Below are positions 8,913-43,722 of a stretch of 64,000 bases of DNA, one piece after another. Numbering within the stretch: position 1 is the stretch's first letter; the number at the start of each line of letters is the position of its first letter. Source of the stretch: Patescibacteria group bacterium (lineage in GTDB: Bacteria > Patescibacteriota > Gracilibacteria > BD1-5 > UBA6164); the NCBI GenBank assembly GCA_034675265.1, contig JAUCDK010000001.1, forward strand, positions 30,358-94,357. Reading direction: 5' to 3'. The position numbers were made by a program, and so were the translations under genes. The notes below the pieces were generated by a model. It was not told the origin of the DNA. It did not search any database and saw nothing but the letters and a program-made list of their open reading frames with translations.

Positions 8913-8928
8913 AATAAATAAAAAATAA

Positions 8929-9087: not shown

Positions 9088-9103
9088 AATAAATAAAAAT
9101 AAA

Positions 9104-9547: not shown

Positions 9548-9569
9548 AGTAATTAATTTATGTTAAAAA

Positions 9570-10664
9570 TTATTTTCAAGTAGATTTTTTCTTATAAATT
9601 TTAAAAATTAATATTCAAATAGTAATCAGAAGAACTAGAGCTCATCAAATAAAGAAAAAAACTGAATCTTCTTTTTTTCTTGATGTTTGGGGGAAATTTC
9701 AAGTTTCTATAGTAGATATTGTATTTGTATTTTCAATACTTTCGTCTATTTCACTTTGAGTTAAAATTCATGAGTTATTTTCTATACTGTTTTCTTGAAT
9801 ACTTCAAGAGTTTTCTAGATTTTCTATTCCAGTATTTGATAGTTCTTGTGCTTCTTTCTCATCAATTATAACAGGAGGAGTTATTTTTGATGGAGGTGGA
9901 GTTTCTTTTATTTCTGGAGAGTTCTCTTTTTTAGGTTTTTGTATAGGAGTTTCTTTGGGTTCCTCTATTACATTACTTAAAAAATTCCCAGTACAAAGAG
10001 GAATATCATTACTTAAAAACTCCTCTCCATATTTCAGTATAGAGTAGTTTGAGTTTATATCTAAAATAGCTGAAAAATTGTCTCAAATTTTTGGATAATA
10101 GCTTTCTCAACGATTTTTATATATGGGAAAATTAGTTGATATTCCTAAACATCCAAGTAATGGGTCTTGAACAGTCTCTTTCCCAAAAACTGTATAGAGC
10201 TTCCCTTGAGATTTAATAATCATATTTAAATCATAGTAAGGGCAAGCTTCAAATAAATCTTTTGTAATATCATAAATTTCTCAAGAAATTTGACATTTAT
10301 TTGCATTATCATAAATATCTCTAGTTTCTTCTTCAGGATTATAACCACTTAAGCAGTTAGGAAGTTCAATATTTTCATTGTAAGCTTCTTCTCAAATTTT
10401 TAATATGTCAACTCAACTAAAGGTTCAAATAGCATAAAACTCATCTCAGACTTTTGGAATATTTTCTCCAGATAAATTGTATAATAAAGGAGTATTACAA
10501 ACTGAATTATCTCAAGCTCAATACAAGACATAACCAAAATCTCATCATTTTAATTTAATTCTTAGGTTTAAACAAGTAGTGTCTCTTCATAGAGGAACTT
10601 TTATTGATTCGATAGTTCCTTTTGCTTTACATTTAAAGGAAGTTTCAAATAATTTTTCTGTCAT
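9570..10664 (-). CDS. Tail-anchored membrane protein with Cys-containing repeats and a Pro/Glu/Lys-rich linker
   Basis: 364 aa. MTEKLFETSFKCKAKGTIES..., repeat NKCQISGEIYDIT, linker EEPKETPIQKPKKENSPEIKETPPPSKITPP, C-terminal TM FFFIGGALVLLITIGILIF. Frame fully checked. Confidence 0.6.
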
Positions 10665-10834: not shown

Positions 10835-10965
10835 AATTATTTCCTCTTCATTTAAATTTGTATTAGAAAACAAAAAATGATTTTGCAAAATCTGAGTAAA
10901 AGTATATATACTTAAAATTAAAATGCAAATATAAAATATATTTTATATTTATATTTTTATGACAA

Positions 10966-10997
10966 AATAAAAAGGTTTGTGAATTTCACAAACTTTT
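10966..10997 (-). terminator. Intrinsic terminator after pyk
   Basis: gtttgtg-aattt-cacaaac hairpin with a T-run on the minus strand. The stem sequence resembles the 9053-9087 terminator. Confidence 0.55.
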
Positions 10998-14618: not shown

Positions 14619-16124
14619 ATGCCAATAGAAAACTCTAACTTTGAACAACAACTTTTTAAAACTGCTGACAAACTTCGTAAAAACATTGATGCAGCTGAAT
14701 ACAAAAATGTAGTATTATGACTTATTTTCTTAAAGTATATTTCTGATTCTTTTATGGAATTACATGATAAATTATCTCAAGATAGTTATTCAGACCCAGA
14801 AGATCGCGACGAATATATTGCAGAAAATATTTTTTTTGTGCCTGAAATTGCCAGATGGCAAAACCTTCAAGCAAAAGCAAAACTTCCAACAATTGGTCAA
14901 GAACTTGATGATGCAATGGAGATAATAGAAAAAGAAAATTCAGAATTAAAAAATGTACTTCCAAAAGTATTTGGAAAGCCAAACCTGGATAAAACTTCAC
15001 TTTGAGAACTTATTGATGTAATTTCAAATATTGATTTAAAGCATACACATAAAAACTCAAAAGATTTACTTTGAAGAGTTTATGAATATTTCTTGTGAGA
15101 ATTTGCAAATGCTGAATGAAAAAAATGATGACAATTTTATACCCCAAAAGCAATTGTTAAACTAATGGTTGAAATGATTGAACCTTATAAGTGAAGAGTT
15201 TATGATCCTGCTTGTTGAAGCGGATGAATGTTTGTAATGAGTGAAAAATTTGTTGAAGAACATCAAGGAAATATAAAAGACATTACCATTTATGGTCAAG
15301 AATCAAATCAAACAACTTGGAAACTTTCAAAAATGAATTTGGCTATTAGAAATATTAACTCAAAGTTTGTAGCTTGGAATACAGAAGGGTCTTTTTTAAG
15401 AGATGCTCATCCTGATTTAAAAGCTGATTTTATTTTAGCAAATCCTCCTTTTAATCAATCAGATTGGTGACAAGAGGTTTTACAAGAAGATGCAAGATGG
15501 AAATATGGGATTCCACCATCTGGAAATGCAAATTTTGGTTGGATACAACATATGCTCTATCACACAGCAACAAATGGAATTGTTTCAACAGTTCTTGCAA
15601 ATGGTTCACTTTCTTCAAATACTTCTTGAGAATGAGAAATTAGAAAAAATTTAATAGAAAATGATTTAGTTGAGTGTATCGTGGCACTTCCAAAACAACT
15701 TTTTTATAATACTTGAATTCCTGCATGTATTTGGTTTTTAAGAAGATGAAGAACTCTCAGAAATAAAGAAACTCTTTTTATTGATGCTTCAAATATGTGA
15801 TATATGAAGGACAGAGTTCATAGAGATTTAAGTGAAGATGATATCAAAAAAATCTCTGAAACTTATCATAATTGGAGAAAATGATGAGATTATCAAGACA
15901 TAAAATGATTTTGTAAATCAGCAAATATTGCAGAAATAGAAAAACATTCATTCGTACTTACTCCTGGAAGATATGTTTGAATAGAGGATGTAGTAGATGA
16001 TGGAATACCTTTTGAAGAAAAAATGAAAGTACTCACTGAAACATTAAAAGAGCAATTTGAAAAAGAAAATATTTTAAATGAAGAAATTAAAAGGCAGTTA
16101 GAGAAAATAGGGTTTAAAATATAA
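14619..16124 (+). CDS. hsdM: Type I restriction-modification system, DNA methyltransferase subunit M
   Basis: 501 aa. Hsd[24 protein letters not shown] motif DPACGSGGM, catalytic [11 protein letters not shown]. Confidence 0.9.
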
Positions 16125-16128
16125 AAAT

Positions 16129-16153
16129 CCCCTTAAAACGAAAAGTCAAGGGG
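16129..16153 (+). terminator. GC-rich hairpin directly after hsdM
   Basis: cccctt-13 nt-aagggg with no clear T-run. Unusual GC content for this genome. Confidence 0.35.
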
Positions 16154-16236
16154 CTCTACTCACAAAAGAGCTACATCAAAGTAGTTATATGATAATTAAA
16201 TCAATTAATAAATCAATAATAAATAACTTAAAAAAT

Positions 16237-17034
16237 ATGTTTCAATTTACAAATTCTCAAAATATCTGAATATATATTGATTTTTCAAATATTTTTCATG
16301 CAAAATACACTTTGTGATGGGAATATGATATAGAGAATTTTTTATCTTATCTGAAAGATCAAGACTCTATTAAAGAAGTTTGTTTTTATTGAGCATATGA
16401 TAAAAGAAATATCAAACAATTTACTTGGGTAAAAAAGCTACAATCTACTTTTAATAGTGATAAATTTTATTTTTATTTTAAAAAACTAGAGAAAAAGTGA
16501 GAAAACCATAAATGAAATGTTGACACAGAGATGTGATTTGATATTTCTGAAAATAAGAATAATTGGGAAACTTTGGTTTTATTTTCAGGTGATTGAGATT
16601 TTCTTTATATTATTAAAAAATTAATAGAAGATTTTAAAAAACAAATTGTTGTAGTAAGTACTAAGTGACATATTGCAAAAGAACTTATTGATTTTATAAA
16701 AACTCAGAATATTGATATTTGTAGATTTATTGATATTAAAAAGGATAATGAAATTGCAACTTGAATTAAAACTATAATAAAAAATACCAAAAGATGACTT
16801 TGTATCCCACCAGAGCTTTTAGAAAAAATAGAAAATGCTGAGATTGAAGAATTGGTTGAATTTAAAAATTGGCTTGATTTGGTTTTGGATAATAAAATTA
16901 AAACTATAGATTTACCATCAATTTTAAAATGATTACAAAATAGAAATCATTATGATACATATAAAACTATTTTAGCTTGGAGGCTTGTTGAAAAGCAATT
17001 ATTACATGATTATATTGAGTCTTTAGTATCTTAG
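16237..17034 (+). CDS. NYN-domain (LabA-like, PIN-superfamily) putative ribonuclease
   Basis: 265 aa. GIYIDFSNIF, KGNVDTEMGFDI, LVLFSGDGDFLYIIKKL, IVVVSTKG follow the NYN acidic-residue pattern. TAG stop. Every codon checked. Confidence 0.6.
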
Positions 17035-17048
17035 TTTAGACGCAAAAA

Positions 17049-17068
17049 TACCTCGATCGCTCGAGGTA
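17049..17068 (+). terminator. Perfect 8-bp GC-rich hairpin after the NYN gene
   Basis: tacctcga-tcgc-tcgaggta. Confidence 0.4.
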
Positions 17069-17178
17069 CCTTGCCAAATTAAGTGATTATATTATATAGA
17101 AAGTCATATAAAATGCAAATAAAAAGTATACCAAAAGTTAACAAAAAGTATTAAAAATTACTATTTAATGAATTTAAA

Positions 17179-17745
17179 ATGTGGAAAATTTTCTCAAAAC
17201 TAAACTACTCAAATCCAGCAAATAAAAAAATGTTTGAAAATCAAATCACTTGATTAAAAGAACAAACAAAATTTGTAAATGATTTATTAGTGCAAAATAT
17301 AATTACAAGTAGAAATAATTTACTCGTTTTGTCTTGATGATTAATGGCTTTTATTTGAGTTGTTCATCCAAGTTTAAAACAAGATACAAATATATTTTTA
17401 AAATTGACTATTGTTTGTTTTTTAACTACGATTTTTTTTGCAATTATTGTTGCAACTATATGAGCAGTTTATGATATAAAACTTATAAAATATAAATCTG
17501 ATGTTATTAAAAATTATTTAACTTCTGTTTGAGATTTCTTACAAAAAGTGAAAAAAATAGAATTTGATAAAGAAGAAGTGAAAAAATATGATACAATGAG
17601 AGAAAAATATAAAAATGATATGGAACTTTCAACTTGATATAAAATTTGAGGATTTTTTCTTAATATAAGTACATGAATTTATAGCATTTCTTTAATTATT
17701 TGAATGATAAGTTTAATAATTTTTTATGTAAATTTAATTTTTTAA
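17179..17745 (+). CDS. Multi-pass small membrane protein, unknown function
   Basis: 188 aa. Hydrophobic helices LLVLSGGLMAFIGVV, LTIVCFLTTIFFAIIVATIGAV, GIYSISLIIGMISLIIFYV. Stop 17743-17745 abuts the hsdS ATG at 17747. Confidence 0.6.
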
Positions 17746-17746
17746 T

Positions 17747-18907
17747 ATGACAACAACAAATACTACATTACCTGATTGATGGATTGAAACGACTTTGGGA
17801 GAGGTTTGTGAGTTTATTAGTAGATGAGTAACTCCAAAATATTCCAATGAATGAATATTGGTATATAATCAAAAATGTATAAGAGATTGAAAAATTTTAA
17901 AAAAAGATTCAAGATTTTTAGATTCATCTCAAAAAATTATGGAAGAAAAATTTTTGAAAGATTTAGATATTTTAATATGTTCTACATGAGTTTGAACATT
18001 ATGAAGAGTTTGACAAATAAAAGAAGTTATAATTCCTTCTACAGTTGATTCTCATGTAAGCATTGTTCGTGTAAATAATAAGAATTCTAAGTTTTACATT
18101 TGATATTTGTTGAAATCAAGAGAAAAATATATTGAAAGCTTAGCAGAATGATCAACATGACAAACTGAGTTGCCTAGAGAAAAAATAAAAAATATTTCAC
18201 TTTTCCTTCCACCACTTCCAGAACAACAAGCAATTGCAAAAATTTTATCATCTTTTGATGATAAAATTGAACTTCTTAGAGAACAAAACGAGACTTTAGA
18301 AAAAATGGCTCAAACTATTTTTGAGGAATGGTTTGGAAAATATAGTGTTGATGATGAATTGCCTGAAGGGTGGAGAGTGGGGAAGTTGGGGGAAGTAATT
18401 GAAAACTATGATTCAAAAAGAATACCTATAGCAAGTGATAAAAGAAAAAAATGAATTTATCCATATTATGGAGCTACATGAATTAATGATTTTGTTAATG
18501 GTTATATTTTTGACTGAATTTATACTTTATTATGAGAAGATGGTTCTGTAATAAAAGAAAATTGAAAACCTTTTACACAATATGTTTGGTGAAAAATTTG
18601 GGTAAATAACCATGCTCATGTTTTACAATGAAAAAACTGATTTTCAACAGAATTAATAAAAATCATATTAGATAATACTGATATTTTTCCTTTTGTTAAT
18701 TGAGCAGTTCAATTAAAAATTAATCAAACAAATATGAATTCTATTCCTTTGATTATCCCAACAAAAGAAATTTTGAAGGAATTTGATGACTTAATTCAAC
18801 CTGTTTTTTGAAAAATTAGAGATAATTCAGAAGAAATACAAACTCTTTCTAAAACTCGTGATGAATTGTTGCCGAAGTTGATGAAAGGGGAAGTGAGAGT
18901 AGTTTAG
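17747..18907 (+). CDS. hsdS: Type I restriction-modification system, specificity subunit S
   Basis: 386 aa. Two TRD halves, each followed by a conserved helix: LPPLPEQQAIAKILSSFDDKIELLREQNETLEKMAQTIF and EIQTLSKTRDELLPKLMKGEVRV. Confidence 0.9.
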
Positions 18908-18929
18908 ATTTTAATAAATAGTTTATTCT

Positions 18930-19940
18930 ATGTGAAGATTAGAAAAAGTAATTTTTGATACTAATAGATTATATAATAGTAAATTAACAACTTTTTTTGC
19001 TAAAAATGTTTGTTGATTAGAAAGTTTCCATAAATCATCTGAAATCATTATTCCAACTATAGTGTTAGAAGAGCTTAGGAATAAATATAAAAGAGATTTT
19101 CAAGAAGGAAAAGAGAAGTTTTTTCAAAATATGTTAAGTAATATTTTGTCACATAATGCTGAAACAATTGATATTGATGATAAAATTCAGAAATTATTAG
19201 ATACAGAAACAATAACTTTTTCGCAGATAGAATTAACAAATATGAATGTTTTAAGTGAAATGATAGAATTAGCTTTAAAAAAAGAACCTCCTTTTGAAGC
19301 TTGAAAAGGTACTGATAAATGATTTAAAGATGCATGCTTATATTTTACTATTTTAGAATATTTAAATACTTTATCCGATAAATATATATTTGTTTGTACA
19401 TGTGATTGAAGATTAAAAGAAGCTTTAGAAAAACATAAAAATATAATTGTTGTTGAAGATTTTAAGGAATTTGAATCAAAAAGTACCTGATATTTTAAGG
19501 AAAAATATTTTATAGATAAATTAAATGAAATATTACCTCATACTGTGGATTCTATTTGAGATATACAATACAATATAAATGATAATTGGCTTATTACTAT
19601 AATTACTAATGATATAGATACTTATCGTGTTGAAGTAGATTTCTCTACAAAAGAAATAATAGATTTCGTGAGAAAATGAGATTTTAATGATTTAATAAAT
19701 TGATTAATTTCCTCAGATAATTTTTCTGATACTCATTCAATTATTAAACAATTGATGTGATTTATAAATTATATTACTGATGATGAAATTATATCTTTAT
19801 ATAATGCTCTTTTCACAAATTCTCAAATAAGATGAGCTTTTTGATACTCAGTAAAAGAATTTTATTTGAAATTATATGAGAATAAAACAGATTTATTTGA
19901 TGATGAAATGAAAAATAAAATAGATAAATTATTTGAGTAA
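18930..19940 (+). CDS. PIN-like (DUF4935-like) putative nuclease
   Basis: 336 aa. VIFDTNRLY, IIIPTIVLEELRNKY, GKGTDKGFKDACLYFTILEY, IFVCTCDGRLKEAL give a PIN-type acidic pattern. The C-terminal half is unassigned. Confidence 0.5.
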
Positions 19941-19950
19941 TATTTATACA

Positions 19951-20439
19951 ATGAAAGATTTAATTATTAACAATTGGGATAAAATAATCTTTATTTTACC
20001 ATTTATTTTTTGAATTTATGAGTTTTTCAAAAATAAAAAAGCTGAAATTGAAATAGAAAAATTAAAATCAAAGCTTGAACTTGAAAAAGATAAAAATATG
20101 CTTAATGATAAAAAGTTTAGACAAGCTTATGAAGATTTTATTTGTTTGCTTTTTGATATGTTACATCAAAAGAAGACAAACAAAAAGATTGATGTAGAGT
20201 CATGAATTGTTGAATTTATGAAGAAAACATTATTATTTGCTTGACCAGAAACTTTAAAAACTTTTTGATTGTATAGAAAAGAAGCCGGAAGTTGAAATGA
20301 AAAAGATATAATGATTTATACAGAAAATCTAATTTTTGCTATGAGAAAAGATTTATGAGTAAGTAATGAAAAATTAGAACAATATGATATTTTACAAACA
20401 TTTATAATTTGAGATATTAAAAAAGCTATTGAGAAATAA
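19951..20439 (+). CDS. Single-pass membrane protein with coiled coil, unknown function
   Basis: 162 aa. N-terminal TM IIFILPFIFGIYEFF, then KAEIEIEKLKSKLELEKDK. Starts 10 nt after the PIN-like gene. Confidence 0.55.
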
Positions 20440-20467
20440 TAATATTTTAATCATTAATTTTTAATTT

Positions 20468-21415
20468 ATGTCTTACTTAATAATAGAATCACATTTTTGA
20501 GTTCCAGAAAATGCTATTTATCCTTTAACTCGTAATCATTCTTCTGATGAACTGGTTTCATTACTTTATAGAATTAATGAGATTTTATATCCGAATGAAA
20601 AGATTGAAATACTTATTCTTCCATCAGAACCATGATCTTATAAAGATATATTAAAAATTATTGGTGCAATTTGATGATGACTATTAACAATTACTTGAGT
20701 TGCAATTGCATATTTAACTTACATTGATGCTCATGAATCTCACCAAATTGATATGATTGAAAAATGTGTAAATATGATTACTAAAGAAGCCGATTGAAAA
20801 ATTGAAATTGATTATACTAAATTAAATAAATTGTGTGAGGATTATTGAGTAAAAAAGATTAAAAATAATAGATATAAAATTTTGCAAAATGATAAAACCA
20901 TTTCATATGAAGAAACTATACTTAAAACTGATGAACAAAAAACAATATATAGGAAAAAAATTGATAGAGAAAAATTTTGAGACATGATTTTTCCGATACC
21001 TGAGGAGCAAGAAGTATTTTTAGAAAATATGGAATGAACTATTGAATTAATTGCATTAGTTGTAAAACAAAAAAAAGAATGAAAATGAATTCCTTGGAAA
21101 TGAACTTATTATTGAGATGAAATTGAAGAATTAGGATATAAAGTTTTATATTCATGAGAGGAAGTTAGTTTTTATATGCAAGATAAAGAATTTAAAAATA
21201 AAATACAAAATCATGAAGTTACTTTTATGAGTTGAGATAATATTTCAGTTTTATTTAATTTAAAATGAACTGTAAAAAATGGCTTCTTTTTAAATAAAAA
21301 TATTTATATAAAAGAAGTAAGACAATTTAATGAAAAAGTGATTGAACATACCCAAAAAATAACATCTAAGAAAGTTAGAAGACAATCTGAGTGACAAATT
21401 AGTTTAGAATTTTAA
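20468..21415 (+). CDS. Hypothetical protein with a central TM helix
   Basis: 315 aa. ILKIIGAIGGGLLTITGVAIAYLTYI (GGG is three TGA). No recognisable domain. Confidence 0.55.
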
Positions 21416-21528
21416 TACTGTTCATTTTGCATTAAACTCTAAATTAAACTTGATATTTACCTAAAATCAATACAATAAATTTGACTTTATACCATTTTTG
21501 ATATATTATCTCTTTAATCTTGGAATAA

Positions 21529-21951
21529 ATGAAAAGAAAAATAAAAATAAATGATGATCCTTTACTTGAAAATTCCTTTATCAAAATATTTAAAAATTTT
21601 TATGAATTCGAACAAATGAGAACAATGGATTGCATCTATCATGTAGTTGATAATTTCAACTGACACCCAGAACCACCAAATGCAAAACCTTTATTTGAAA
21701 CTTGAGACGAAGAACTTAATGAGTTTAGAATCTCACTAAATGAAATTTTATTTAGAGTACATTACTTTTTAACTGATGAATATGTAGTTATACTCAATGC
21801 TTACACAAAACCAAATGGTAAAAAAAGTAAAAATGAATATAACAAAGCTTCAAAGAAAAAATTAGATAAAGAAATTAAAATTTTCATACAAGAAGCTTTA
21901 GAGTTAAAAAAAGAGTATTTTAACAATAATGAAAATTATCATGAGCTATAA
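21529..21951 (+). CDS. Gp49/HigB-like (RelE superfamily) toxin
   Basis: 140 aa. LNEFRISLNEILFRVHYFLTDEYVVILNAYTKPNGKKS...KEIKIFIQEALELKKEY. 11-nt overlap with the next gene. Confidence 0.6.
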
Positions 21952-22639
21952 TATAAAAGATTTACAAAAACTTGTACAATCTAAAGAATTTAGTGACTAT
22001 AGAAAAGAAAACAAAAAAAATCACATACTTTGAGAAAAAGTTTATGCTCGTAGAAAAGAACTTTGACTTACTCAAGCAGAACTTTGAGAAAAATCAAAAA
22101 TAGTACAAAACAAAATTTCTCAAATAGAAAGTTGAACATATGGAGAAAATATTTGAGACGATATTTTAGAAAGACTTTCAAATGCCTTAAATATCTCAAT
22201 TGATTATTTAAAAACAACAGATATTGAGAGAAAAACTTTTGAAATGTATAATTATGTTCTTTTAAAACTTTCGAAATCACCAGATCCATGGCAATTTATT
22301 AAAATAGCATATTTTATAGATTTAGAATCTGTAAAAAATTTTTGAAAACTCTTAACAAACTATATTTATGTGAGATATAGTTATGGTCCGTTTGATAAAA
22401 AAATGTATGATTATCAAAAAATATTTTCCATGGAAAATGAAAAATGATTTCAAGATGTAAAAAGTCTCTATTTATCTCGTGATGAAATGAAAATAATAGA
22501 TAGTGTCTTTGAAAAATATCCAGTAGAAAATTGAAGAGAGTTAATGAATTTATCCTATCAAACACCACCATTACAAAAACTTTGAGTCACTTGTGGAGAT
22601 GGAAAACATATGTATGAAGAACTGGATATGTTCGCATAG
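21941..22639 (+). CDS. XRE-HTH fused to a SocA/Panacea-like (DUF4065) antitoxin domain
   Basis: 232 aa. HTH LGEKVYARRKELGLTQAELGEKSKIVQNKISQIESG. C-terminal WQFIKIAYFIDLESVKNFGKLLTNYIYVRYSYGPFDKKMY. Confidence 0.6.
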
Positions 22640-22652
22640 TAATATTTTGTAA

Positions 22653-22684
22653 AAACAATTCTTTTTAAAAGGATTGTTTTTTCT
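22653..22684 (+). terminator. Intrinsic terminator after the toxin-antitoxin pair
   Basis: aaacaattc-tttttaaaa-ggattgttt (1 mismatch) plus a T-run. Confidence 0.5.
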
Positions 22685-22771
22685 TTGAGTTAGAGAATAA
22701 AACCTTGCATTCTTATCAAGAAAAACTATAATTAGATATATATAAATAGTACTAAAATGTAACAAATAATC

Positions 22772-25700
22772 ATGCTCAACGAAAACTCCATCGAACAATC
22801 TCTCATCCAAATCCTAACTTCTCAGTGATATACTTATTATTACTGACCAGAAATTTCTCCATATTCTCAAAATCCCATGAGAGCTGGATTTGATAATGTT
22901 TTACTTGAAACTGAACTGAAAAATTCTCTAAAAAAGATAAACCCATCACTTCCAGACTCAGTTTTAAGTGATGCTTTTTCTCAAATTCAAAACCTTGGAA
23001 CCACTGACATCATGAGCAATAATGAGACATTTCACACTATGCTATCGGATGGAGTAAATGTAGAATATTTCAAAGACTGAGTTTCAAAATGAATAAATGT
23101 TCAAATCCTTGATTTGCAAAACATAGAAAATAATTCTTTTATAGTAGTAAATCAATTTATTATTAAAGAGAATAATGCGGAAAAAAAGCTCGATGTAGTT
23201 ATTTTTGTAAATGGATTACCACTTGTAATTATTGAACTAAAAAATCCAATTGATGAAAATGCAACTCTAGATAATGCTTTTACTCAAATACAAAACTATA
23301 AAAATGCTGTTCCAAGTATATTTTATTATAATGCTATTTGTGTAATATCTGATTGAATAGAAGCGAAAACTGCTTCACTTTCAGCTCCATTTTCCAGATA
23401 TTTAGCCTGGAAATCACCAAATAAGTCAGAGAATGGAAAACTTCCAGAAATCCAACTTTTAGCTGAATATATGCTAGAAAAAGAAACTCTTTTAAAACTT
23501 ATTAGATACAATACCGTATTTGAAACAGAAGAAATAAAAGATGAAAAAACAGGTTTAGTAAATATCGTAAAAATCAAAAAAATTGCAGCATATCATCAAT
23601 ATTATGCTGTTCAAAAAGCTATTGAGGAAACTATCAGAGCCACAAGAGATGCTTGAGACAAAAAAGCTTGAGTTGTTTGGCATACTCAATGAAGCTGAAA
23701 ATCACTTTCTATGGTATTTTATACCTGACAACTTGTAGTTAGCCCAGAAATGGAAAATCCAACAATTGTTATTTTAACTGATAGAAATGATTTAGATGAA
23801 CAACTTTTTGCTACTTTTTGAAATTGTATTTCTCTTTTAAGACAAAAACCAGTTCAAGCAGAGTCAAGAGAACATTTAAAAGAATTATTAAAAGTAACTT
23901 GATGAGGAATAGTTTTTACCACTATTCAAAAATTTTACCCAGAAGATGGAAAAAATGAATTTGAAATGCTCTCAAATAGAAAAAATATTGTAGTAATTGC
24001 TGACGAAGCTCACAGAAGCCAATATGGATTTACTGGAAAAATAGTTGAGGATGATTTTTGAAATGTAGATATAAAATATTGAAATGCAAAATATTTAAGA
24101 GATGCTCTTCCAAATGCCTCTTTTATAGGTTTTACTTGAACACCTATAGAAAAAGAAGACAGAGATACAAAAAAAGTTTTTTGAGAATATATTGATATTT
24201 ATGACATAGCACAAGCCGTAAAAGATGGAGCAACCGTTCCTATAAGTTATGAATCAAGACTTGCAAAAATCAGATTTAATGAAAATGTTACTCATCAAAT
24301 AGATTCAAAAATAGAAAAAATTTCTTGAGCAACTGACGACCAAATAGAAAAAGCAAAAAAGATAAATGCTCAAATAAATGCTGTTGTATGACATCCTGAT
24401 AGACTCAAAGATATTGCAAAAGATATAGTTGAACATTTTGAAGAGAGACAAAAAACATTTGAATGAAAATCTATGATTGTTTGTATGACGAGACAAATAG
24501 CAGTTGATTTGTATGAACAAATTATTTCTCTTCGTCCAAATTGGCACGATAAAAAGCTTGAAAACTGAGTCATAAAAATAGTTATGACGAGTTCAAGTGA
24601 TGATCCAGAAAGTTTTCAACCTCATCATACTACAAAAGATCAAAGAAAAAAACTCGCTCTGAGACTGAAAGACACAAATGATAATTTAAAAATAGTTATT
24701 GTTCAATCAATGTGGTTGACTTGATTTGATGCTCCATGTTTAAACACTATGTACATTGATAAAAAAATGGAGTGAGCCAATCTGATGCAAGCAATTGCAA
24801 GAGTAAACAGAGTGTATAAAGACAAACCAGGATGACTTATAGTTGATTATATTGGTATCGGGCAAGATTTAAGAAATGCTATGGCTGTTTATACAGAAAG
24901 CGGGTGAGAATGAGAATCTGTTTCAGACATAAAAGAAATAATTGCTTGAATGAAAACAAAGTTTGAAATTGTAGAACAAATGTTTTTCTCGTATGATTAC
25001 AAATCTTATTTTTCTTCAAATGATGGAATGCAAAAACTTCAAATACTTTTGTGAGCTCAAAATTTTATTTTATCTGACGAAGAATTAAAAAATAGATTTC
25101 TTGCAGAAGTTTGAGCACTTTCAAAACTTTTTGCTATGAGTGTGCCAAGTGATGAAGCTGAAAAGTTAAGAGATGAAATAGCATTTTTTCAAGCGATAAA
25201 ATCAAGAATTAATAAATTTACTCCTTCGCAATGATTATCAAATACTCAAGTAAATAATGCAGTGAAACAAATTGTTGAAGAAGCTTTGGCAAGTGATGGA
25301 GTCATTGATATATTTGAAGCTGCTGGAATTAAAACACCAAGTTTAAGTATTTTATCAGAAGAATTTTTACTCGAAGTGAAAAATATGAAGCATAAAAATA
25401 TTGCTTTTGAACTGCTTAAAAAACTTTTAAATGAAGAGGTAAAATTAAGAAAATCAAAAAGTTTATCACAATGAAAAAAGTTTTCTGAAATGCTTTCAAA
25501 TACTATTAAAAGGTATCATAATAATCAAATTGATACAGCACAAGTTTTAGAAGAATTATCTGAAATTGCTCGTGAAATGCATTTAGAAGATAAAAAAGCA
25601 GAAGATATTTGATTGACAGTAGAAGAATATGCTTTTTATACAGTTTTGTCTCAAAATGATTCTACCAAATTTTTAGAAGATGAAAAGATGAAAGAATTAA

Positions 25701-25900
25701 TTCATGTAATAGTTGATATTGTCAGAAAAAATGCAACTGTGGATTGGGAAAAAAGAGATGATGTAAGAGCTAAATTAAGATTACTTGTAAAAAAAGTTTT
25801 GATGAGATATTGATATCCTCCTGATATTGCAAAAATTGAAGCAGATAGAGTTTTAGAGCAAAGTGAGCTTTTGGCGGAAGAGTTAACAAAAAAGAAGTAA
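22772..25900 (+). CDS. hsdR: Type I restriction-modification system, endonuclease/helicase subunit R
   Basis: 1042 aa. [21 protein letters not shown] nuclease core, [15 protein letters not shown] (motif I), [12 protein letters not shown] (DEAH). Five track ORFs join in one frame. Confidence 0.9.
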
Positions 25901-25921
25901 AAAGTTTTTAATTCTTTTATA

Positions 25922-25949
25922 TTGACTTATATGATTTTTTATATATAAA
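25922..25949 (+). promoter_or_regulatory. Sigma70-like promoter (TTGACT-16-TATAAA) for minigene A
   Basis: tatATTGACTt at 25918-25928; TATAAA at 25944-25949. Confidence 0.45.
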
Positions 25950-26020
25950 AGAATAACTCATTTTCTACAGTGTTTTAATTTTGAAGCACTGAGAGTGAAA
26001 TATATGGAAGGAGACAGGAT

Positions 26021-26245
26021 ATGGAAATCAATCTTATCACAATTATTCCGAGTATTTTCGTAATATATCTCTTGCTAGGTATCGTTCTCACGATAGGTCT
26101 TATCAGAGTTGAACGAAAAAGTTCAGTATATAGGACAAATAAGAAAATAGGTTGTAAAAAACGTATTTTAGTTCTTTGTCTTATTCTGCCATTTTTTGCG
26201 ATTTTAGTCTTTTTAGGCGTAAAATCGTTGAAAGTGTTCTCTTAA
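26021..26245 (+). CDS. Minigene A: 74-aa two-helix membrane protein, TGA-free, with Shine-Dalgarno
   Basis: ggaaggaga SD 8 nt upstream. MEINLITIIPSIFVIYLLLGIVLTIGLIRVERKSSVYRTNKKIGCKKRILVLCLILPFFAILVFLGV. Uses GC-rich codons rare elsewhere (ccg, ctc, acg, gcg). Strong terminator follows. Confidence 0.6.
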   Translation: MEINLITIIPSIFVIYLLLGIVLTIGLIRVERKSSVYRTNKKIGCKKRILVLCLILPFFAILVFLGVKSLKVFS

Positions 26246-26275
26246 AAAGGCTTGCATACGCAAGCCTTTTTTTTA
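26245..26275 (+). terminator. Strong intrinsic terminator of minigene A (overlaps the sufD stop codon)
   Basis: aggcttgc-atac-gcaagcct followed by T7. Confidence 0.75.
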
Positions 26276-26947
26276 ATTGAGAGATAAAAATTCTTCATAT
26301 AAATTATCATATAAATCTTTATCAAGCATTTCTAAACAAGTAAATGTTTTTTTGAAATAACTCTCTGTCATTAGTTTTATACTTGATTGAATATCAAGTC
26401 ATCTTGATTCAAGATAGAAAAGTTTATCTTCTTCAATTCTATGAGTTTTACTTGAGTGGCTTACTTGTACATCATTCGCATCAATAAATAAATTTGGAAG
26501 AGAACTGAGAGTTCATTTTTTCCCAATAAAAATATTTTCTAAATCTAAACTCGCTTCAATTTTCTCTGAATCTTTTGAAATATGAATACTGGAATCAATT
26601 CCAATATGACTTTCTTTTACTACAGAAATAATGTGAATATGAGAAACGGAATTATTTCCTGAAATATGTGAAGAAATATTTGATACAAGATTATGATTAT
26701 CTCAAATAAAAAGTCCTTTTACAGAGAGTTTTGAAGCATTATCTTTTTGATAAATAGAAATATTTTTTGGAGCATTACTACTAAAAAAAGTATAAAGATC
26801 TACTTTTGAATTTTCTCAAATAGAAAGAGTAATATCATTTTCTAAATCTTTGATAAAAAGGGAAGTATAAATATCTTTTTCAATTTCTATATGATTTCCA
26901 AAATGAGTATCAATTTGATAAAATCAGGTTTTTGTAATATTTGACAT
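26273..26947 (-). CDS. sufD: Fe-S cluster assembly protein SufD (short form)
   Basis: 224 aa. SufBD-family C-terminal signature VQVSHSSKTHRIEEDKLFYLESRGL. Last gene of sufCBD. Confidence 0.7.
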
Positions 26948-26968
26948 TTTTAAATTTTTAAATATAAA
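26941..26968 (+). promoter_or_regulatory. Sigma70-like promoter (TTGACA-16-TATAAA) facing minigene B; overlaps the sufD start codon
   Basis: TTGACA 26941-26946, TATAAA 26963-26968. Would give a leader of about 135 nt. Confidence 0.4.
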
Positions 26969-27110
26969 GTACAGACTCTAATAATTGTATGGGACAAAAA
27001 TGAACATTTGATGTCTTTTTTGCTTTTCTATACAAAATTTACAGTATCAACATAGTATTTCCTAAAATATTTTTCATTATTTTGTAATAATTGGAAGCAG
27101 GAAGCCTATA

Positions 27111-27323
27111 ATGCAAATCAAACAAGGTCTTGAAATTACAACCTCATTTCTCCATGATTCGAAAGGAATTAAAGCAAATCAGTCTTATATTGCTGCTAGA
27201 AGAGCAAATGTAAAGGGAAGAGTTTTAAGGTGTGTTCCTGGTAACGGTGGAGATGTTTGGTTTGTTGAACATCATGACACACGAGATATTGCAGTATATT
27301 CATCTCTTGAACTAACTCAATAA
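27111..27323 (+). CDS. Minigene B: 70-aa soluble protein, TGA-free
   Basis: MQIKQGLEITTSFLHDSKGIKANQSYIAARRANVKGRVLRCVPGNGGDVWFVEHHDTRDIAVYSSLELTQ. aggaag 8 nt upstream. Sits between sufD and sufB on the opposite strand. Confidence 0.55.
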   Translation: MQIKQGLEITTSFLHDSKGIKANQSYIAARRANVKGRVLRCVPGNGGDVWFVEHHDTRDIAVYSSLELTQ

Positions 27324-27377
27324 TCTTATTGACTCTTGCCCGAGTATAAAGGGCTTTTTTATTTTCCAAATAAATTT

Positions 27378-28781
27378 TTAAAACCCTCATTCAAATTCCA
27401 TACTTATAAGTACATTCATTTCACTTGCATATTCAAGAGGTAATTCTTTTAAAATTGGACTGATAAATCCATTTACCAAAATTGAAGTTGCTTCATTTTC
27501 GCTCATTCATCTACTCATAAGATAAAATAAATCTTGTTCATTTACTTTTCCAGCTGTTGCTTCATGTGCAACTGTTGAGAAACTATTTCCTATTTTAATA
27601 TTTGGAATAGCATTATTTACAGAAATTTCATCTAAAATAAGTCCATCACAATCAATTTTTGAAACACTTCCTGTTGCACTTGGTTTTATATCAACCAGTC
27701 ATCTATACGTTGAAATTCCACCTCATTTTGAAAGAGATTTTGAAGCAATATTTGAAGTAGTATTTTTTCAAATATGAATTACTTTTGCTCCAGTATCTTG
27801 ATTTTGTCCAGAATTTGCAAATGCAATTCCTAAATGTTCTGCTTTTGAATAATCTCAAACAAGTACACTACAAGGATAAAGCATAGTGGTATTACTTCCA
27901 AGATTTCCTCAAACCCATTCTATAAAACCTTTTTCTTGTACAATAGCTCTTTTTGTATTGAGATTATATGTATCTAAACTCCAGTTTTCTACTGATGAAT
28001 ATCTCATATGTGAATTTTTTCAAACAAAAATTTCTACTCATCCAGCATGAAGAGAATTTTCATCATATTTTGGAGCACTACATCATTCAATATAATGAGC
28101 TTCACTATCATCTTCTAAAATGATAAGAGTATGTTCAAATTGTCATCCAGATTTTACATTCATACGGAAATACGATTGTAATGGTTCAGAAATTTTTACT
28201 CCAGCTGGAATGTATAAAAATGTTCATCCACTCCAAACTGCATAGTGAAGTGCAGAGAATTTATGATCAGCAAGAGGAATTGATTTTGAAAAATATTTTT
28301 TAATAATAGCTTCATATTCAGGAACTTTCAGAGCATGAGTTAAATCATCAAAAATAACTCACTCTTTTTTTATTTCTTCTTTGAGAGAATGATATACAGT
28401 TTCACTATCATATTGAGCTCCAACTCAAGCAAGTGCTTTTTTTTCTGCTTCAGGAATTCCAAGTCTATCAAAAGTTTTTTTGATATTTTCAGGAACATTT
28501 TCCCAAGATTTATTATTTCCAGCACCTTGTGGTTTTGCAAAATAATAAATACTATCTAAATCTAGTTTTTGTAAATCTGGTCACCAATTTGGCATTGGTT
28601 TAGAATTATAAATTTCCAGTGCTTTGAGTCTTATAGCTAACATCCATTCAGGTTCTTGATTTGACATAGAAATTTGTCTTACTACTTGCTCATTTATTCA
28701 GGCAACAAGCTCTGAAGTATAATTTACTTCATCATGAAAATTCCAAGTTCAAGAGATGTTTATATTGTTTGGGTTTGACAT
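27378..28781 (-). CDS. sufB: Fe-S cluster assembly protein SufB
   Basis: 467 aa. [65 protein letters not shown]. Frame fully checked. Confidence 0.9.
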
Positions 28782-28860
28782 TTTTGTTATTTTAAATATA
28801 AGGGTATTACTTTCTTTGGTCCAGTTAAACTTTTAACTTTGTGATAGAGGAGGAAAAGTC

Positions 28861-29040
28861 ATGATTATGATTTATTATGTAGGAGGAAAAAAACAAGAAT
28901 TGTTTGTTGTTTCCTCCTCAGATGAAAGGATGTTTAAGAAATATCCAGGAGGGTATTTTAACCAAAGGCAATTAGCAGGATTTGTGTCATCATGTATTGG
29001 CATTCCTTCAAAAAATATCCATCAGGTTTCCCTTTCATAA
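28861..29040 (+). CDS. Minigene C: 59-aa protein, TGA-free, strong Shine-Dalgarno
   Basis: agaggagga SD. MIMIYYVGGKKQELFVVSSSDERMFKKYPGGYFNQRQLAGFVSSCIGIPSKNIHQVSLS. Below the 60-aa cutoff of the track. An internal aggaggaaa...tttcctcct hairpin lies at 28881-28918. Confidence 0.5.
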   Translation: MIMIYYVGGKKQELFVVSSSDERMFKKYPGGYFNQRQLAGFVSSCIGIPSKNIHQVSLS

Positions 29041-29056
29041 GTGATTACGGCAGAAT

Positions 29057-29087
29057 GCTAGGTATCAAATACCTAGCTCTTTTTTTA
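29057..29087 (+). terminator. Strong intrinsic terminator of minigene C (abuts the sufC stop)
   Basis: gctaggtat-caa-atacctagc followed by tcttttttt. Confidence 0.75.
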
Positions 29088-29819
29088 TTCAAAACCATTT
29101 TCAATGATACTTTTTACTACTTCTTTTCCTCAAGTTTTTTGCACTTCTCAATTTTTTAATACATATACAGTATCAAAATCAATATAATCAACGATTTTAA
29201 AATGGTGAGTAATGATAATAATAGAATTATTTTCATTATTCATTTTTTTGATGTGCTCAGCAACAATTTTAAAAGCGTTAATATCAAGTCAAGAATCGAT
29301 TTCATCAAGTATAATGTATTTTGGATTCAAAAGTTTTGCTTGGAGTAATTCGATTTTTCTTTTTTCTCCACCACTAAATCATACATTTAAATCTCTTGAT
29401 AGAAAATTTTCATCGATTTCTAATTCTTGTAAAAATTTTGCAACAAATCTTTTAAATATAAAAGGGGAAAGTGCTTTTGTTTCTGGAGATGAAATTTTTA
29501 AATAATTATTATAAATAATTCTTAAATATTCTCACAAATGAATTCCAGGAATTTCTGGTACATTTTGAAATGATAAAAAAAGTCCTGCTTGAGCTCTTTC
29601 TGACGTATCCATTTCTAATAAATTTTTTCCATCAATATATGCTTCTCAAGAAATAAATTCATAACTAGGGCTTCACATAAGGAAACTTGATAAACTTGAT
29701 TTTCCACTTCCATTTTTTCAAAGTACAAGATAATTTTTCCCTGATTCAAAGTTGATATTTACTCATTTTAAAATCTCTTTATCTCACACATTTATTTTTA
29801 AATTTTTTACTTCAATCAT
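29085..29819 (-). CDS. sufC: Fe-S cluster assembly ATPase SufC
   Basis: 244 aa. Walker A LGKNGSGKSS (first Gly is TGA 29718-29720), signature FSGGEKRK, Walker B IILDEIDSG. Confidence 0.9.
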
Positions 29820-30078
29820 AAAATTTTAATATTACTAAATTAGTCATATTTTAATGAAAAAATAGAATTTTCAAGTTTTGTTTCAAAAATTTGTACAAGG
29901 GGTCATAAAGCCAAAAAATTATGATGAATATCGCAAAAAATACAATTGTTAATACTTTGTGAAAAACTCATTTTTTTTCTCTTAAAATAAATAAATAAAT
30001 TGTCTAGCAATTTTTTTCACCTTTTTAAAAATTAGTGTTGACTTTATTTTAAAAAAGAGTAAATATAAATCATCAGAA

Positions 30079-32203: not shown

Positions 32204-32389
32204 ATGACAGAATTTGCACCAACTGGAAGTAATCCAAAAATGACTCGTTCTCAAGTAAGAAGATATATGCGTGAGATGGAGGAAAAAAGAACAAAAGCAC
32301 AATTAGAGCTTGAAAAAGCTCGTTTGGCTTGAGAATTACATAATGAGGAAGATTTGGAAGATTTAGATAAAAAAATAGATGATTTATAA
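32204..32389 (+). CDS. Small charged hypothetical protein (61 aa)
   Basis: MTEFAPTGSNPKMTRSQVRRYMREMEEKRTKAQLELEKARLAGELHNEEDLEDLDKKIDDL. Contains one TGA=Gly. Confidence 0.4.
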
Positions 32390-33427: not shown

Positions 33428-33628
33428 TTAACATCCAAATACTTCTATTTTATCATTGGTTGCTTTTATGGATAAAATATTATAAACATCAGTATTTACC
33501 TTATCTCTAAATCAATTTATTATACAAGGAGCCCAAACTTCAATTTCTTGAGTTCTTTTCAAAACTTTATCTATAAAAGATTTTTCTTTTTTTTCACAAG
33601 TTATTATAAATTTGGTATAAATATTCAT
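33428..33628 (-). CDS. Small hypothetical protein (66 aa)
   Basis: MNIYTKFIITCEKKEKSFIDKVLKRTQEIEVWAPCIINGFRDKVNTDVYNILSIKATNDKIEVFGC. Immediately downstream of alaS. Confidence 0.4.
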
Positions 33629-43140: not shown

Positions 43141-43722
43141 ATGTTTAGAAAGTTTTTTTCAACTTTATTCTTTGGTATTGTATTGACTATGTTCAATACA
43201 AGTTCTTTTGCTCAAAATTTGCTAGTAAATTCTAGCTTTTTAACACTTATCAACGATGCAAGTTATAGTGCCACAAATACGATGCTTTATAGTACCGCAA
43301 CAAAGAATAATTTTATTAATTATTTTCCTTCTGCAGGTCCTCAAATAGAGATTCTTGGAGGAGTTGATATATCGGTTACTTCTAATGACGATTGGGGACA
43401 GGGGAATAAGGGGCAGTGTGTAGGGTTAATTAAAATAGCTACTAATTTTTCGAGTGGATTTGCATCATCTTGGATTAAAGGTAGTGGATTTAATCATAAT
43501 TATCCTCCTCCAGTTAGGACTGTTTTGGCTTATTTCAATGGCCAACCAACTTATCCCTCTTCAGGAGGACATGCTCTTATATATTTGGGAAGCTATATGG
43601 GAAATCATGTTGTAATTGATCAGAATTGGGGAAATGATAAAAGAATACAAATGCGCATGATGTCAGCAACTAGTGGAAGTGGGAGAGATAACTTGAGTAA
43701 TTATAATATTGTGACAAAATAA
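43141..43722 (+). CDS. Secreted BPSL0067-like papain-fold (Cys/His) protein, TGA-free
   Basis: 193 aa from the ATG after SD aaggaga. Signal peptide MFRKFFSTLFFGIVLTMFNTSSFA. GQCVGLIK...SSWIKGSG...VLAYFNG...GGHALIYLG...VIDQNW. About 24 Gly, all GGN. Visibly higher GC. Confidence 0.55.
   Translation: MFRKFFSTLFFGIVLTMFNTSSFAQNLLVNSSFLTLINDASYSATNTMLYSTATKNNFINYFPSAGPQIEILGGVDISVTSNDDWGQGNKGQCVGLIKIATNFSSGFASSWIKGSGFNHNYPPPVRTVLAYFNGQPTYPSSGGHALIYLGSYMGNHVVIDQNWGNDKRIQMRMMSATSGSGRDNLSNYNIVTK

Follow-up and report, generated by a model that had tools for sequence, protein, structure and literature searches.

Small TGA-free antisense genes occupy the spacers of a suf gene cluster in a Gracilibacteria-type genome that reads TGA as glycine

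This report concerns a 64,000-nucleotide stretch of contig JAUCDK010000001.1 from a Patescibacteria group bacterium (positions 30,358 to 94,357; assembly GCA_034675265.1), referred to in its full length as the window, and three small open reading frames (ORFs) on its plus strand that interleave with a minus-strand suf cluster; we call these ORFs minigenes and number them mini1, mini2 and mini3. The window has a GC content of ~27%, and its long reading frames emerge only when TGA is taken as a sense codon. With TGA read as glycine, the canonical motifs of SufC return (Walker A GKNGSGKS, signature FSGGEKRK), and relatives found through SufB carry the labels Gracilibacteria, Altimarinota or Patescibacteria. 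The window is part of a Gracilibacteria-type genome in which TGA encodes glycine (code 25). Its suf genes, all in this native code, are sufC (29085-29819, minus strand; 244 amino acids, aa; 10 TGA codons; Pfam ABC_tran), sufB (27378-28781, minus strand; 467 aa; 17 TGA; Pfam SUFBD_core, E = 5.9e-75) and a short sufD-like gene (26273-26947, minus strand; 224 aa; 5 TGA; Pfam SUFBD_core, E = 9.7e-24), referred to below as sufD. All three suf spacers are occupied by a plus-strand unit: mini3 lies between sufC and sufB, mini2 between sufB and sufD, and mini1 after sufD. The ORFs were found exactly where the first-pass annotation of this DNA had placed them (mini1, 26021-26245; mini2, 27111-27323; mini3, 28861-29040). 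The wider neighbourhood contains the suf genes, rsmH and a DEAD-box helicase gene, and sufB and sufD are each preceded by a conserved TATATT-type upstream motif, TTATATTTAAAA...ATG.

The three units share one order of parts, namely a promoter, a leader with a Shine-Dalgarno (SD) sequence, the ORF and a terminator made of a hairpin and a T-run; the ORFs (74, 70 and 59 aa) are all plus-strand and run from an ATG to a TAA. Every promoter, terminator and leader structure given here is a sequence prediction; the transcripts would start ~7 nucleotides after the TATAAn boxes and stop at 26272 (mini1), 27362 (mini2) and 29086 (mini3). The mini1 unit opens with a promoter-like site found by pattern scan (25922-25949, plus strand, TTGACT-16-TATAAA), a layout found again upstream of the mini1b homologue in L011 and L013 (related loci and contigs are cited by L numbers). 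Its leader (25958-26020, plus strand) carries a 5' hairpin with arms CAGTG (25968-25972) and CACTG (25987-25991), a purine-rich tract and the SD sequence GGAAGGAGA at 26006-26014; the predicted fold of -15.8 kcal/mol is significant against shuffled sequences (z = -3.2). The mini1 ORF encodes a predicted two-helix membrane protein of 74 aa with 4 GGN glycine codons and no TGA. The mini2 promoter-like site (26941-26968, plus strand, TTGACA-16-TATAAA) has a -35 box that overlaps the sufD start codon (26945-26947), and it is followed by a leader of ~135 nucleotides (nt) at 26975-27110 (plus strand) with a weak SD-like tract, GGAAGCAGGAAG, at 27093-27104; the leader fold is not significant against shuffles (z = -1.25). 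The ORF encodes 70 aa, predicted to form an SH3/Tudor-like beta-barrel, with 6 GGN and no TGA. The mini3 promoter-like site (28775-28802, plus strand, TTGACA-16-TATAAG) has a -35 box overlapping the sufB start codon (28779-28781). Its leader (28809-28860, plus strand) consists of ACTTTCTTT, a GTTAA/TTAAC hairpin, TTTGTGA and the SD sequence AGAGGAGGA at 28846-28854, and its CU-rich 5' arm is predicted to be able to pair with the SD; the fold is not significant against shuffles (z = -0.39). The 59-aa product is a lineage-restricted, soluble, basic protein with 6 GGN and no TGA codons. The mini2 and mini3 promoters lie in a 28-nt repeat (D6), the mini2 copy being 86% identical to 28774-28801. 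The promoter pattern noted at first pass, here TTGAC(A/T)-16-TATAA(A/G), and its overlap with the sufD start were both recovered, but there are three such promoters rather than two, and the sufB start is overlapped as well.

The terminators differ in the strands on which they could act. A bidirectional terminator (26244-26274) with a 12-bp stem (hairpin 26244-26271) serves mini1 on the plus strand and sufD on the minus strand: it has predicted energies of -21.9 kcal/mol on the plus strand and -19.3 on the minus strand and U-runs on both, with a T-run on the plus strand and, upstream, an A-run that is the T-run of the minus strand, so the terminator after mini1 can, on this prediction, also end the sufD transcript. 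The mini2 terminator is a 31-nt module, ACTCTTGCCCGAGTATAAAGGGCTTTTTTAT, at 27332-27362 (plus strand); its weak hairpin (27338-27360, GCCC...GGGC followed by T6) is unidirectional, without a minus-strand T-run. The mini3 terminator (29057-29086, plus strand) has a 9-bp stem (hairpin 29057-29077) and a T-run that reaches the sufC stop codon; on the minus strand its hairpin is followed by AUUCUGCC without a U-run, so that both internal terminators carry a U-run on the plus strand only. The two GC-rich stems had already been recognized at first pass, and the weaker third one at 27338-27360 had been missed. Native genes also carry a recurring type of intrinsic terminator, AAAGTTTGT...ACAAACTTTTTTT, at 9050-9080 and 10965-10995, and since native genes use intrinsic terminators too, terminator use is not in itself a foreign trait. 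No Rfam family matched anywhere in the window at gathering thresholds; a permissive search of 25800-29200 returned only matches of E = 0.4-0.9, far below gathering scores and at chance level, two of them on a terminator hairpin.

Several lines of evidence show that the minigenes encode real small proteins, with selection measured for mini2 and mini3. The chance of an ORF of the observed length arising in a shuffled spacer was P = 0.007, 0.014 and 0.023 for the three, or jointly ~2e-6. A Logan contig of a related strain, L091, has mini2 and mini3 orthologues in the corresponding spacers, and comparison with it gave ratios of nonsynonymous to synonymous substitution (dN/dS) of 0.19 for mini2 and 0.29 for mini3 (0.05 for sufB and 0.11 for sufC), which indicates purifying selection on both minigenes at the protein level. 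None of the three peptides matched anything above threshold in Pfam, PHROGs, NCBIfam or PADLOC. Mini2 nevertheless belongs to a protein family, with 131 representatives at E < 1e-3 in an exhaustive HMMER search and 457 clusters in a profile search; among close relatives it has just two clusters. Its best full-length matches (E = 6.7e-10 to 1e-8) are 35-48% identical along the whole length. Members are mostly hypothetical proteins of ~74 aa with the motif VPGHGGDVWxVxH and without a Pfam model; the family alignment has invariant G36, H54, Y63 and E67, and the C-terminal boundary of mini2 agrees with that of the other members. The members whose source is named are from Wolfebacteria and Parcubacteria, and the best match adjoins an RND efflux pump in a standard-code (Gram-negative) genome. 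The family also occurs in 9 IMG/VR contigs, which are not plausible direct donors because all are high-GC, standard-code phages; a tblastn search of GenBank phages with mini2 gave no match. An AlphaFold2 model of mini2 (predicted local distance difference test, pLDDT, 91.7) is a small SH3/Tudor/KOW-like barrel, and the fold gives no function because its Foldseek matches are weak (E >= 0.02). A WD40 identity suggested by a PDB profile search with the mini2 family was discarded as an artefact of summed weak repeats with no single significant stretch.

The other two products are more isolated. Mini3 was found only in its own cluster among 5.8 billion proteins and had no match in IMG/VR, and its single-sequence model is mediocre (pLDDT 76.5) and without a fold match. 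Mini1, predicted to be a two-helix membrane peptide, has a divergent homologue (mini1b) at the same place in L011 and L013; no relatives were detected outside the clade, and mini1 was not searched in large protein databases. Its architecture resembles that of the cassette proteins with two transmembrane helices in L173, L174, L019 and L030, a general likeness that does not establish homology.

The minigenes are set apart from the native genes of the window by their start signals, their glycine codons and their codon choice. SD strength was scored as predicted pairing energy with a generic anti-SD sequence. The native genes have A/T-rich upstream regions without an SD, and their mean pairing energy is -0.7 kcal/mol over 49 starts, none of which reaches -6; mini1 scored -8.8, mini2 -4.8 and mini3 -12.0 kcal/mol. 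By these energies the SD is clear in mini1 and mini3 and marginal in mini2, so the earlier assignment of SD sequences to all three stands for two of them and only marginally for the third. Glycine is encoded in native genes by 568 TGA and 557 GGN codons, and all 16 glycine codons of the minigenes are GGN, as the first-pass annotation had stated (0 TGA, P ~1e-5). That annotation had also described both GC content and codon choice as visibly different; the GC excess turned out to be modest (0.31-0.36 against ~0.27), but codon choice is strongly atypical, with codon-usage z scores against the native distribution of -10 for mini1, -4 for mini2 and -6 for mini3, when small native genes fall within +/-2. 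GC at third codon positions is 0.28 in mini1, 0.27 in mini3 and 0.155 in mini2, against 0.08-0.19 in native genes. The minigenes use AGG for 8 of 20 arginines (3% in native genes), CAG in 6 of 19 cases (3%) and TTG in 12 of 49 (8%). Three small native genes, at 45957-46184 (5 TGA), 32204-32389 and 33428-33628, contain TGA, lack an SD and have codon usage within +/-2 standard deviations.

A scan of the whole window for an SD followed by ATG returned two further genes of the same kind. One (43141-43722, plus strand) encodes a secreted protein of 193 aa that carries a signal peptide. The gene is SD-led and has none of its 19 glycines encoded by TGA; it has its own predicted TTGACT-16-TAGATT promoter and 5' hairpin, matches the NCBIfam BPSL0067 family (29.9 bits) and was found in only 5 public contigs. 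The other (60002-60493, plus strand) encodes a very acidic protein, is SD-led (GGAGG) and has a TAG stop at 60491-60493. Its first 154 codons (60002-60463) include 11 glycine codons and no TGA, and the first in-frame TGA follows at 60464-60466, 9 codons before TAG, so the end of the protein depends on the code used. A hairpin, CCCCGAGAGGGG, followed by T8 lies within the 3' end of this ORF. Four of the five genes have anti-SD pairing energies of -8.7 to -12 kcal/mol, and the codon scores of all five lie 4 to 10 standard deviations below native, with enrichment of AGG, CAG, AAG and TTG, which are rare natively. Together the five SD-led genes contain 0 TGA among 46 glycine codons, compared with 50% in native genes (P ~1e-14), and TGA occurs 0 times in frame and 7 and 28 times in the other two frames. 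The minigenes are thus shown to be members of a compositionally separate class of at least five genes in the window, SD-led, without in-frame TGA and with non-native codons, and the first-pass observation is confirmed as real and stronger than first noted.

The arrangement of the suf cluster in relatives bears on how the minigenes came to be there. All comparative loci were picked through sufB, which biases the picture towards suf, and the suf spacers were compared with other regions within the 64-kb window only. Same-species strains (>99% identical) carry all three minigenes in every case. Public assemblies with the locus are GCA_050252855.1, GCA_964410405.1 and GCA_034676185.1. The first-pass annotation had called for a search for uninterrupted clusters, and a compact sufC-sufB-(x)-sufD-sufS order was found in L017, L020, L021, L025, L027 and L028. 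The sufC-sufB spacer, 303 nt in the window, is 9-79 nt in L017, L020, L021, L022, L027 and L028 and is absent in L025, where the called ORFs overlap; L022 has a large gap after sufB. The minigenes therefore lie between genes that are adjacent in related genomes. Closer to the window, the cassettes (units of this kind) are replaced or hyper-divergent in L005/L011, L012 and L013, though the suf proteins there are 88-97% identical. In L005/L011 the sufC/sufB spacer holds an unrelated 35-codon ORF, the sufB/sufD spacer holds mini2 within a 100%-identical recombination tract, and a divergent mini1b follows sufD. L012 has, between sufC and sufB, a homologue of that 35-codon ORF together with a 35-aa membrane peptide, and its contig ends before the other two sites. 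L013 has a very divergent mini3 homologue of richer GC content between sufC and sufB, a different ORF between sufB and sufD, and mini1b after sufD. The identical tract against L005 (GCA_034676185.1) spans window positions ~26950-27500 between flanks of 80-97% identity, a mosaic showing that homologous recombination has recently taken place over mini2 and the sufB 3' end. We also considered whether sufB and sufD had gained a new 'MSN' start through cassette insertion, and dropped the idea because SufB N-termini of the form MS(N/T) also occur in cassette-free lineages.

The same organization recurs at a distance. L030 belongs to a distant lineage (SufB ~79% identical) and has opposite-strand TGA-free ORFs in the same three spacers, unrelated to those of the window: they encode a 79-aa basic, a 111-aa membrane and a 65-aa two-helix protein and are SD-led by sequence inspection. 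The opposite-strand arrangement was also seen in L015, L016, L018 and L019. Among themselves the L030 cassettes have a common 74-nt leader (78% identical) and a common 64-nt terminator region (70% identical). A leader layout of -10 box, ACTTTCTTT(CC), hairpin, TTTTGTGAAA, purine-rich tract, SD and ATG is common to mini3 of the window, to L091 and L013 and to all three cassettes of L030. Arms of the hairpin covary, being GTTAA/TTAAC in mini3 of the window, GTTA/TAAC in L013, GTTAGT/ACTAAC and GGATTAG/CTAATC in L030, and CAGTG/CACTG in mini1 of the window. Since by energy only the mini1 leader is significant, the leader structure is drawn from comparison. The variable loops of the leader hairpins made a MAFFT alignment impossible, and a regular-expression search of the collected sequences with the leader found only five cassettes, all already identified. 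In L030, a repeated segment, TTTATACTCTTAA...ATG with a TATACT motif, lies upstream of sufD and of a gene for a 425-aa protein (6304-6369 and 7456-7537), downstream of cassettes, which suggests that genes downstream of cassettes may each have their own promoter once the operon is split.

The terminator module provides a possible link to mobile DNA. The 31-nt mini2 terminator, ACTCTTGCCCGAGTATAAAGGGCTTTTTTAT, is identical in L173, a metagenome contig of 24% GC, and near-identical in L019/L168 and L174; each copy stands behind an SD-led ORF for a two-helix membrane protein (in L173 one of 74 aa, unrelated to mini2). In L173 (Ga0265294_10002189) this cassette sits at the edge of a TGA-free element (2040-10280) that encodes a MobA/VirD2 relaxase (46 bits), a type IV secretion system coupling protein (175 bits), a MobC-like protein, a helix-turn-helix protein, a DnaJ-domain membrane protein and a DUF4760 protein. 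A tyrosine-integrase fragment, identified by eye from the reading frame, lies at the end of the locus. The element's genes have 0-1 TGA each and stop with TAA or TAG, and the adjacent native pilin-like gene has 29 TGA and 7 GGN codons. The L173 block is a TGA-free integrative mobilizable or conjugative element in a code-25-type genome. The window minigenes have no mobility genes beside them, and a link to mobile DNA would run through the identical terminator at the edge of the L173 element. A search of IMG/VR with the mini2 terminator module gave 0 matches, and the leader pattern gave 51, all within coding sequence and none with a promoter or with an SD plus ATG, as expected by chance. No direct or inverted termini are common to the three units, the only repeat found around them being the 28-nt promoter repeat of mini2 and mini3; because the repeats show no shared termini, their interpretation as miniature inverted-repeat transposable elements, insertion sequences or integron cassettes was rejected.

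Avoidance of TGA has persisted in these cassettes while the genes around them changed. Between the window and L012/L013, 30-33% of the conserved glycine codons of the suf genes have switched between TGA and GGN (7% against L091/L011), and the cassette ORFs of these genomes contain 0 TGA in roughly 35 glycine codons. Several homologues end in TGA. In L091, mini2 has TGA at the exact ORF end (TAA in the window) with no back-up stop before the terminator; the ORFs of L011 and L012, homologous to each other (~38% identity over 29 residues), both end ...Y-TGA without a back-up stop; an ORF for a 117-aa membrane protein in L018 likewise has TGA at its exact end and no back-up stop before the terminator; and the ORF in L174 ends TGA-AAT-TAA. 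Where UGA is read as glycine, such TGA-ended ORFs would run into the terminator. They may be standard-code relics, tolerated defects or genes that UGA does terminate. Code-25 lineages are reported to lack RF2. The window minigenes, which stop with TAA, give the same product in both codes, and this is not so for the TGA-ended homologues of L091, L011, L012 and L018.

The explanation we favour, with moderate confidence, is that the minigenes are moron-like cargo cassettes of an SD-using mobile gene pool compatible with both codes, that recombination in the conserved flanks of suf exchanges them, and that their translation starts from their SD. The gene class would derive from, and still exchange with, a pool associated with Gracilibacteria (conjugative or mobilizable elements and phages) that is kept compatible with the standard code and code 25 and relies on SD-dependent initiation. 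Cassettes would enter tolerated intergenic sites and then be swapped between strains and species through homologous recombination in the conserved suf flanks; such swapping would explain why unrelated or very divergent ORFs occupy the same spacers. Once in place, the minigenes would be translated by the host ribosome via their SD. The internal terminators appear to act on the minigene strand only and so need not stop suf transcription; the suf genes could still be transcribed by read-through or from their own promoters, minigene transcripts would be antisense to any read-through suf RNA, and an influence on suf through convergent or antisense interference would probably be a by-product.

The first-pass annotation had offered acquisition from a standard-code, SD-using donor as one possible origin. 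This is the best supported of its options, through the SD sequences, TGA avoidance, codon usage and the mini2 family, which occurs in standard-code bacteria, Candidate Phyla Radiation (CPR) bacteria and phages; the uninterrupted sufCB(D) of many relatives and the cassette module beside the TGA-free relaxase and coupling-protein element also back it. Leader and terminator modules are common to cassettes with unrelated ORFs and to distant lineages, and for this reason the origin appears to be not a one-off import but a gene pool in circulation within Gracilibacteria, from which TGA is kept out.

Several observations weigh against a mobile-pool origin. The three minigenes are flanked by neither mobility genes nor repeat boundaries nor target-site duplications; the search for a close donor found none, the best relatives of mini2 being <=48% identical and mini3 an orphan; and scans of viral contigs for the leader and terminator returned nothing relevant. 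The cassettes seem to be old in the clade, with very divergent homologues at the same sites, and they remain TGA-free despite the turnover of glycine codons in suf, which therefore implies continual replacement or selection against TGA and not a simple recent import. Random insertion would not be expected to fill every one of the three suf spacers, and to do so again in a distant lineage. The suf-centred loci were all chosen via sufB. The SD of mini2 is only marginal, and the promoters, terminators and leaders are predictions, two of the leader folds being no better than shuffles.

The persistence of TGA avoidance is also what would be expected if the minigenes were native, long-term residents of Gracilibacteria forming a 'standard-code' class, in which selection keeps TGA out and SD in, either for correct decoding wherever UGA does not mean glycine (after transfer to a partner or prey cell with the standard code, or during a phage-imposed switch) or because UGA acts as a stop. 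This fits the TGA codons placed exactly at the ORF or homology end in mini2 of L091 and in L011, L012 and L018, the failure of the clade's cassettes to gain an in-frame TGA despite ~30% switching of suf glycine codons, the frame specificity of the avoidance and the retention of a promoter-leader-terminator module across lineages while ORFs vary. We nevertheless regard it as unlikely, as the minigenes of the window itself all stop with TAA, the independent cases of a TGA stop number only about three, expression of a bacterium's chromosomal genes in another cell has no known mechanism, and replacement from a host-alternating mobile pool would give the same pattern without special decoding. Its boldest form, which we hold to be a little less credible again, is that Gracilibacteria hold 'standard-code' cassettes on a conserved chassis, kept UGA-free by selection, sometimes using UGA as terminator and built for decoding in which UGA is not glycine, with the suf spacers as preferred sites. 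If this were true, such decoding could happen after conjugative transfer, in a host or prey cell that uses the standard code, or in the recoded cell itself after a decoding switch, for example through a phage release factor or loss of tRNA-Gly(UCA), and the suf spacers would be preferred landing or retention sites and not accidents. Ordinary native small genes under very high expression could in principle show SD and TGA avoidance through translational selection, and the first-pass annotation had cautioned that TGA avoidance might reflect expression, citing the RRM-domain gene at 3105-3374 (plus strand). That gene does have 0 TGA in 10 glycine codons, the TGA share of glycine varies widely across native genes, and mini2 and mini3 are under purifying selection. 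The RRM gene is a different case from the cassettes, since it has native codon usage (z = 0.1) and no SD, and its own TGA avoidance is probably related to expression level; the minigenes favour codons that are rare in the genome (z -4 to -10), the opposite of adaptation to high expression, and are missing from most relatives and replaced in close ones. The caution is weakened accordingly, and we find a high-expression origin improbable.

An equally improbable alternative makes cis-antisense control of suf the primary role, with plus-strand transcription colliding or pairing with suf transcripts and the ORFs secondary. The geometry would allow it: the start codons of sufB and sufD are overlapped by -35 boxes of minigenes, each unit runs convergently to the upstream suf gene and ends in a terminator that adjoins the stop codon of that gene, the opposite-strand arrangement recurs in the five loci named above, and with unidirectional internal terminators any RNA reading through sufCBD would be antisense to mini2 and mini3 over their full length. 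The ORFs, however, matter in their own right, as shown by dN/dS values of 0.19-0.29 and by family membership; such cassettes also lie away from suf (43141, 60002, L173, L174), suf runs without them in many Gracilibacteria, and sampling via sufB inflates the apparent association. We judge it somewhat less probable still that the two-helix minigenes, mini1 among them, encode proteins akin to type I toxins or to holins and are silenced by their leaders, which would make the cassettes selfish addiction modules between essential genes. Small hydrophobic two-helix products do recur (mini1, mini1b, L012, L016, L019, L030, L173, L174), the CU-rich 5' arm is predicted to be able to pair with the purine-rich/SD tract, and placement between essential genes for iron-sulfur cluster assembly would make clean deletion risky. 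Against this, no antitoxin RNA gene or second promoter was identified, the proteins (65-111 aa) exceed typical type I toxin size, mini2 and mini3 are soluble, and there are no family matches in the four collections searched. That the minigenes are functionless chance ORFs in expanded AT-rich spacers is very improbable: mini1 and mini3 lack detectable relatives beyond the clade (mini1 not having been searched in large protein databases), but the joint length probability of ~2e-6, dN/dS below 1, the membership of mini2 in a protein family with a confident fold and the correct order of SD, promoter and terminator in all three units argue strongly against it.

Comparison with known systems helps to place the favoured cargo cassettes. 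Like phage morons, the minigenes have their own predicted promoter and terminator around a single ORF, sit between genes that are contiguous in relatives, differ from their flanks in composition, carry variable cargo and are oriented independently of their neighbours. Unlike morons, they reside in a chromosomal housekeeping operon and not a prophage (there were no PHROGs matches, and viral contigs held no cassette-like matches for mini3, the leader or the terminator), they occur three in a row, always antisense to their neighbours and with a conserved leader module, and they differ from the host in effective genetic-code usage and not in GC content alone. Phages predicted to infect Gracilibacteria have been reported to lack in-frame TGA and to fit both codes (Liu et al., 2023, mBio; PMC10746230). 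The minigenes resemble these phages of Gracilibacteria/Absconditabacteria in having no in-frame TGA, in ending with TAA in the window and in being readable in both codes, but no phage genes occur at the locus, the linked L173 element is not a phage, the minigenes are single units fixed in the chromosome, and several relatives' homologues end in TGA. Integron cassettes are similar as small, mostly orphan ORFs of atypical composition in interchangeable slots, with conserved non-coding ends around variable ORFs; the minigenes differ in lacking an attC-like site or a neighbouring integrase, in having their own promoters and in being interleaved with essential genes and not arrayed. An identification as integron cassettes was discarded, there being no shared imperfect inverted-repeat ends, no integrase in the neighbourhood and a promoter in each unit. 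Type I toxin-antitoxin systems share with the minigenes a short hydrophobic product (mini1), a leader 5' arm that may pair near the SD and an antisense position to a neighbouring transcript, but neither a dedicated gene for an antisense RNA nor a separate antisense promoter or terminator was detected, the proteins are longer, two of the three are soluble, and none has homology to toxin families in Pfam, PHROGs or PADLOC. Mini2 fits the VPGHGGDVWxVxH family in its full-length alignment, its end position and its SH3-like barrel model, yet it is an isolated member in a code-25 genome of 27% GC, antisense inside a suf cluster; the family has no known function or conserved neighbourhood. Searches of Pfam, PHROGs, NCBIfam, PADLOC and Rfam gave no match between the minigenes and a known toxin, defence or RNA family.

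Foreign cargo cassettes as such are familiar. What is new here is the shared promoter-leader-terminator chassis, the strict and frame-specific way in which a recoded host's reassigned codon is avoided, the possible link to a conjugative element free of TGA and the repeated antisense filling of every suf spacer. A common view holds that an alternative genetic code acts as a firewall against the exchange of genes. This UGA-recoded bacterium carries, in an essential operon, genes that both codes read identically and whose ribosome-binding start signal is one that the host's own genes do not use. Together with the TGA-free relaxase and coupling-protein element, this points to a mobile gene pool crossing the code boundary, and it would extend the pattern reported for phages to conjugative elements and single chromosomal minigenes. 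The signature of the class can be scored from SD strength, the TGA share of glycine and codon usage, and could be used to map incoming genes in code-25 genomes, where these small proteins are at present annotated only as hypothetical. The TGA-ended homologues offer a natural test of how UGA is read at gene ends.

Further features lie close to the suf cluster. A perfect inverted repeat, ACTAA-T-TTAGT (29834-29844, minus strand), is located 14-24 nt upstream of the sufC start, and similar sequences, TGACTAATTTAGTAATATT and AAAATAGTAATGTTT, occur upstream of sufC in most of the Gracilibacteria loci examined, making the repeat a candidate operator for a suf regulator. A 43-aa ORF (29840-29971, minus strand) on the same strand as sufC stops ~20 nt short of the sufC start, and L012 and L013 have an identical C-terminal half, VQIFETKLENSIFSLKYD; because the ORF overlaps the inverted repeat, its conservation may be at the DNA level. 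On the other side of the cluster, the interval from the DEAD-box helicase gene to mini1 holds a type I restriction-modification island (14619-25900) that encodes HsdM, an NYN-domain protein, HsdS, a 659-aa protein and HsdR. The window and strain L001 have it and strains L002-L004 lack it, and it is a strain-variable island of native-code, TGA-rich genes, unlike the adjacent TGA-free cassettes.

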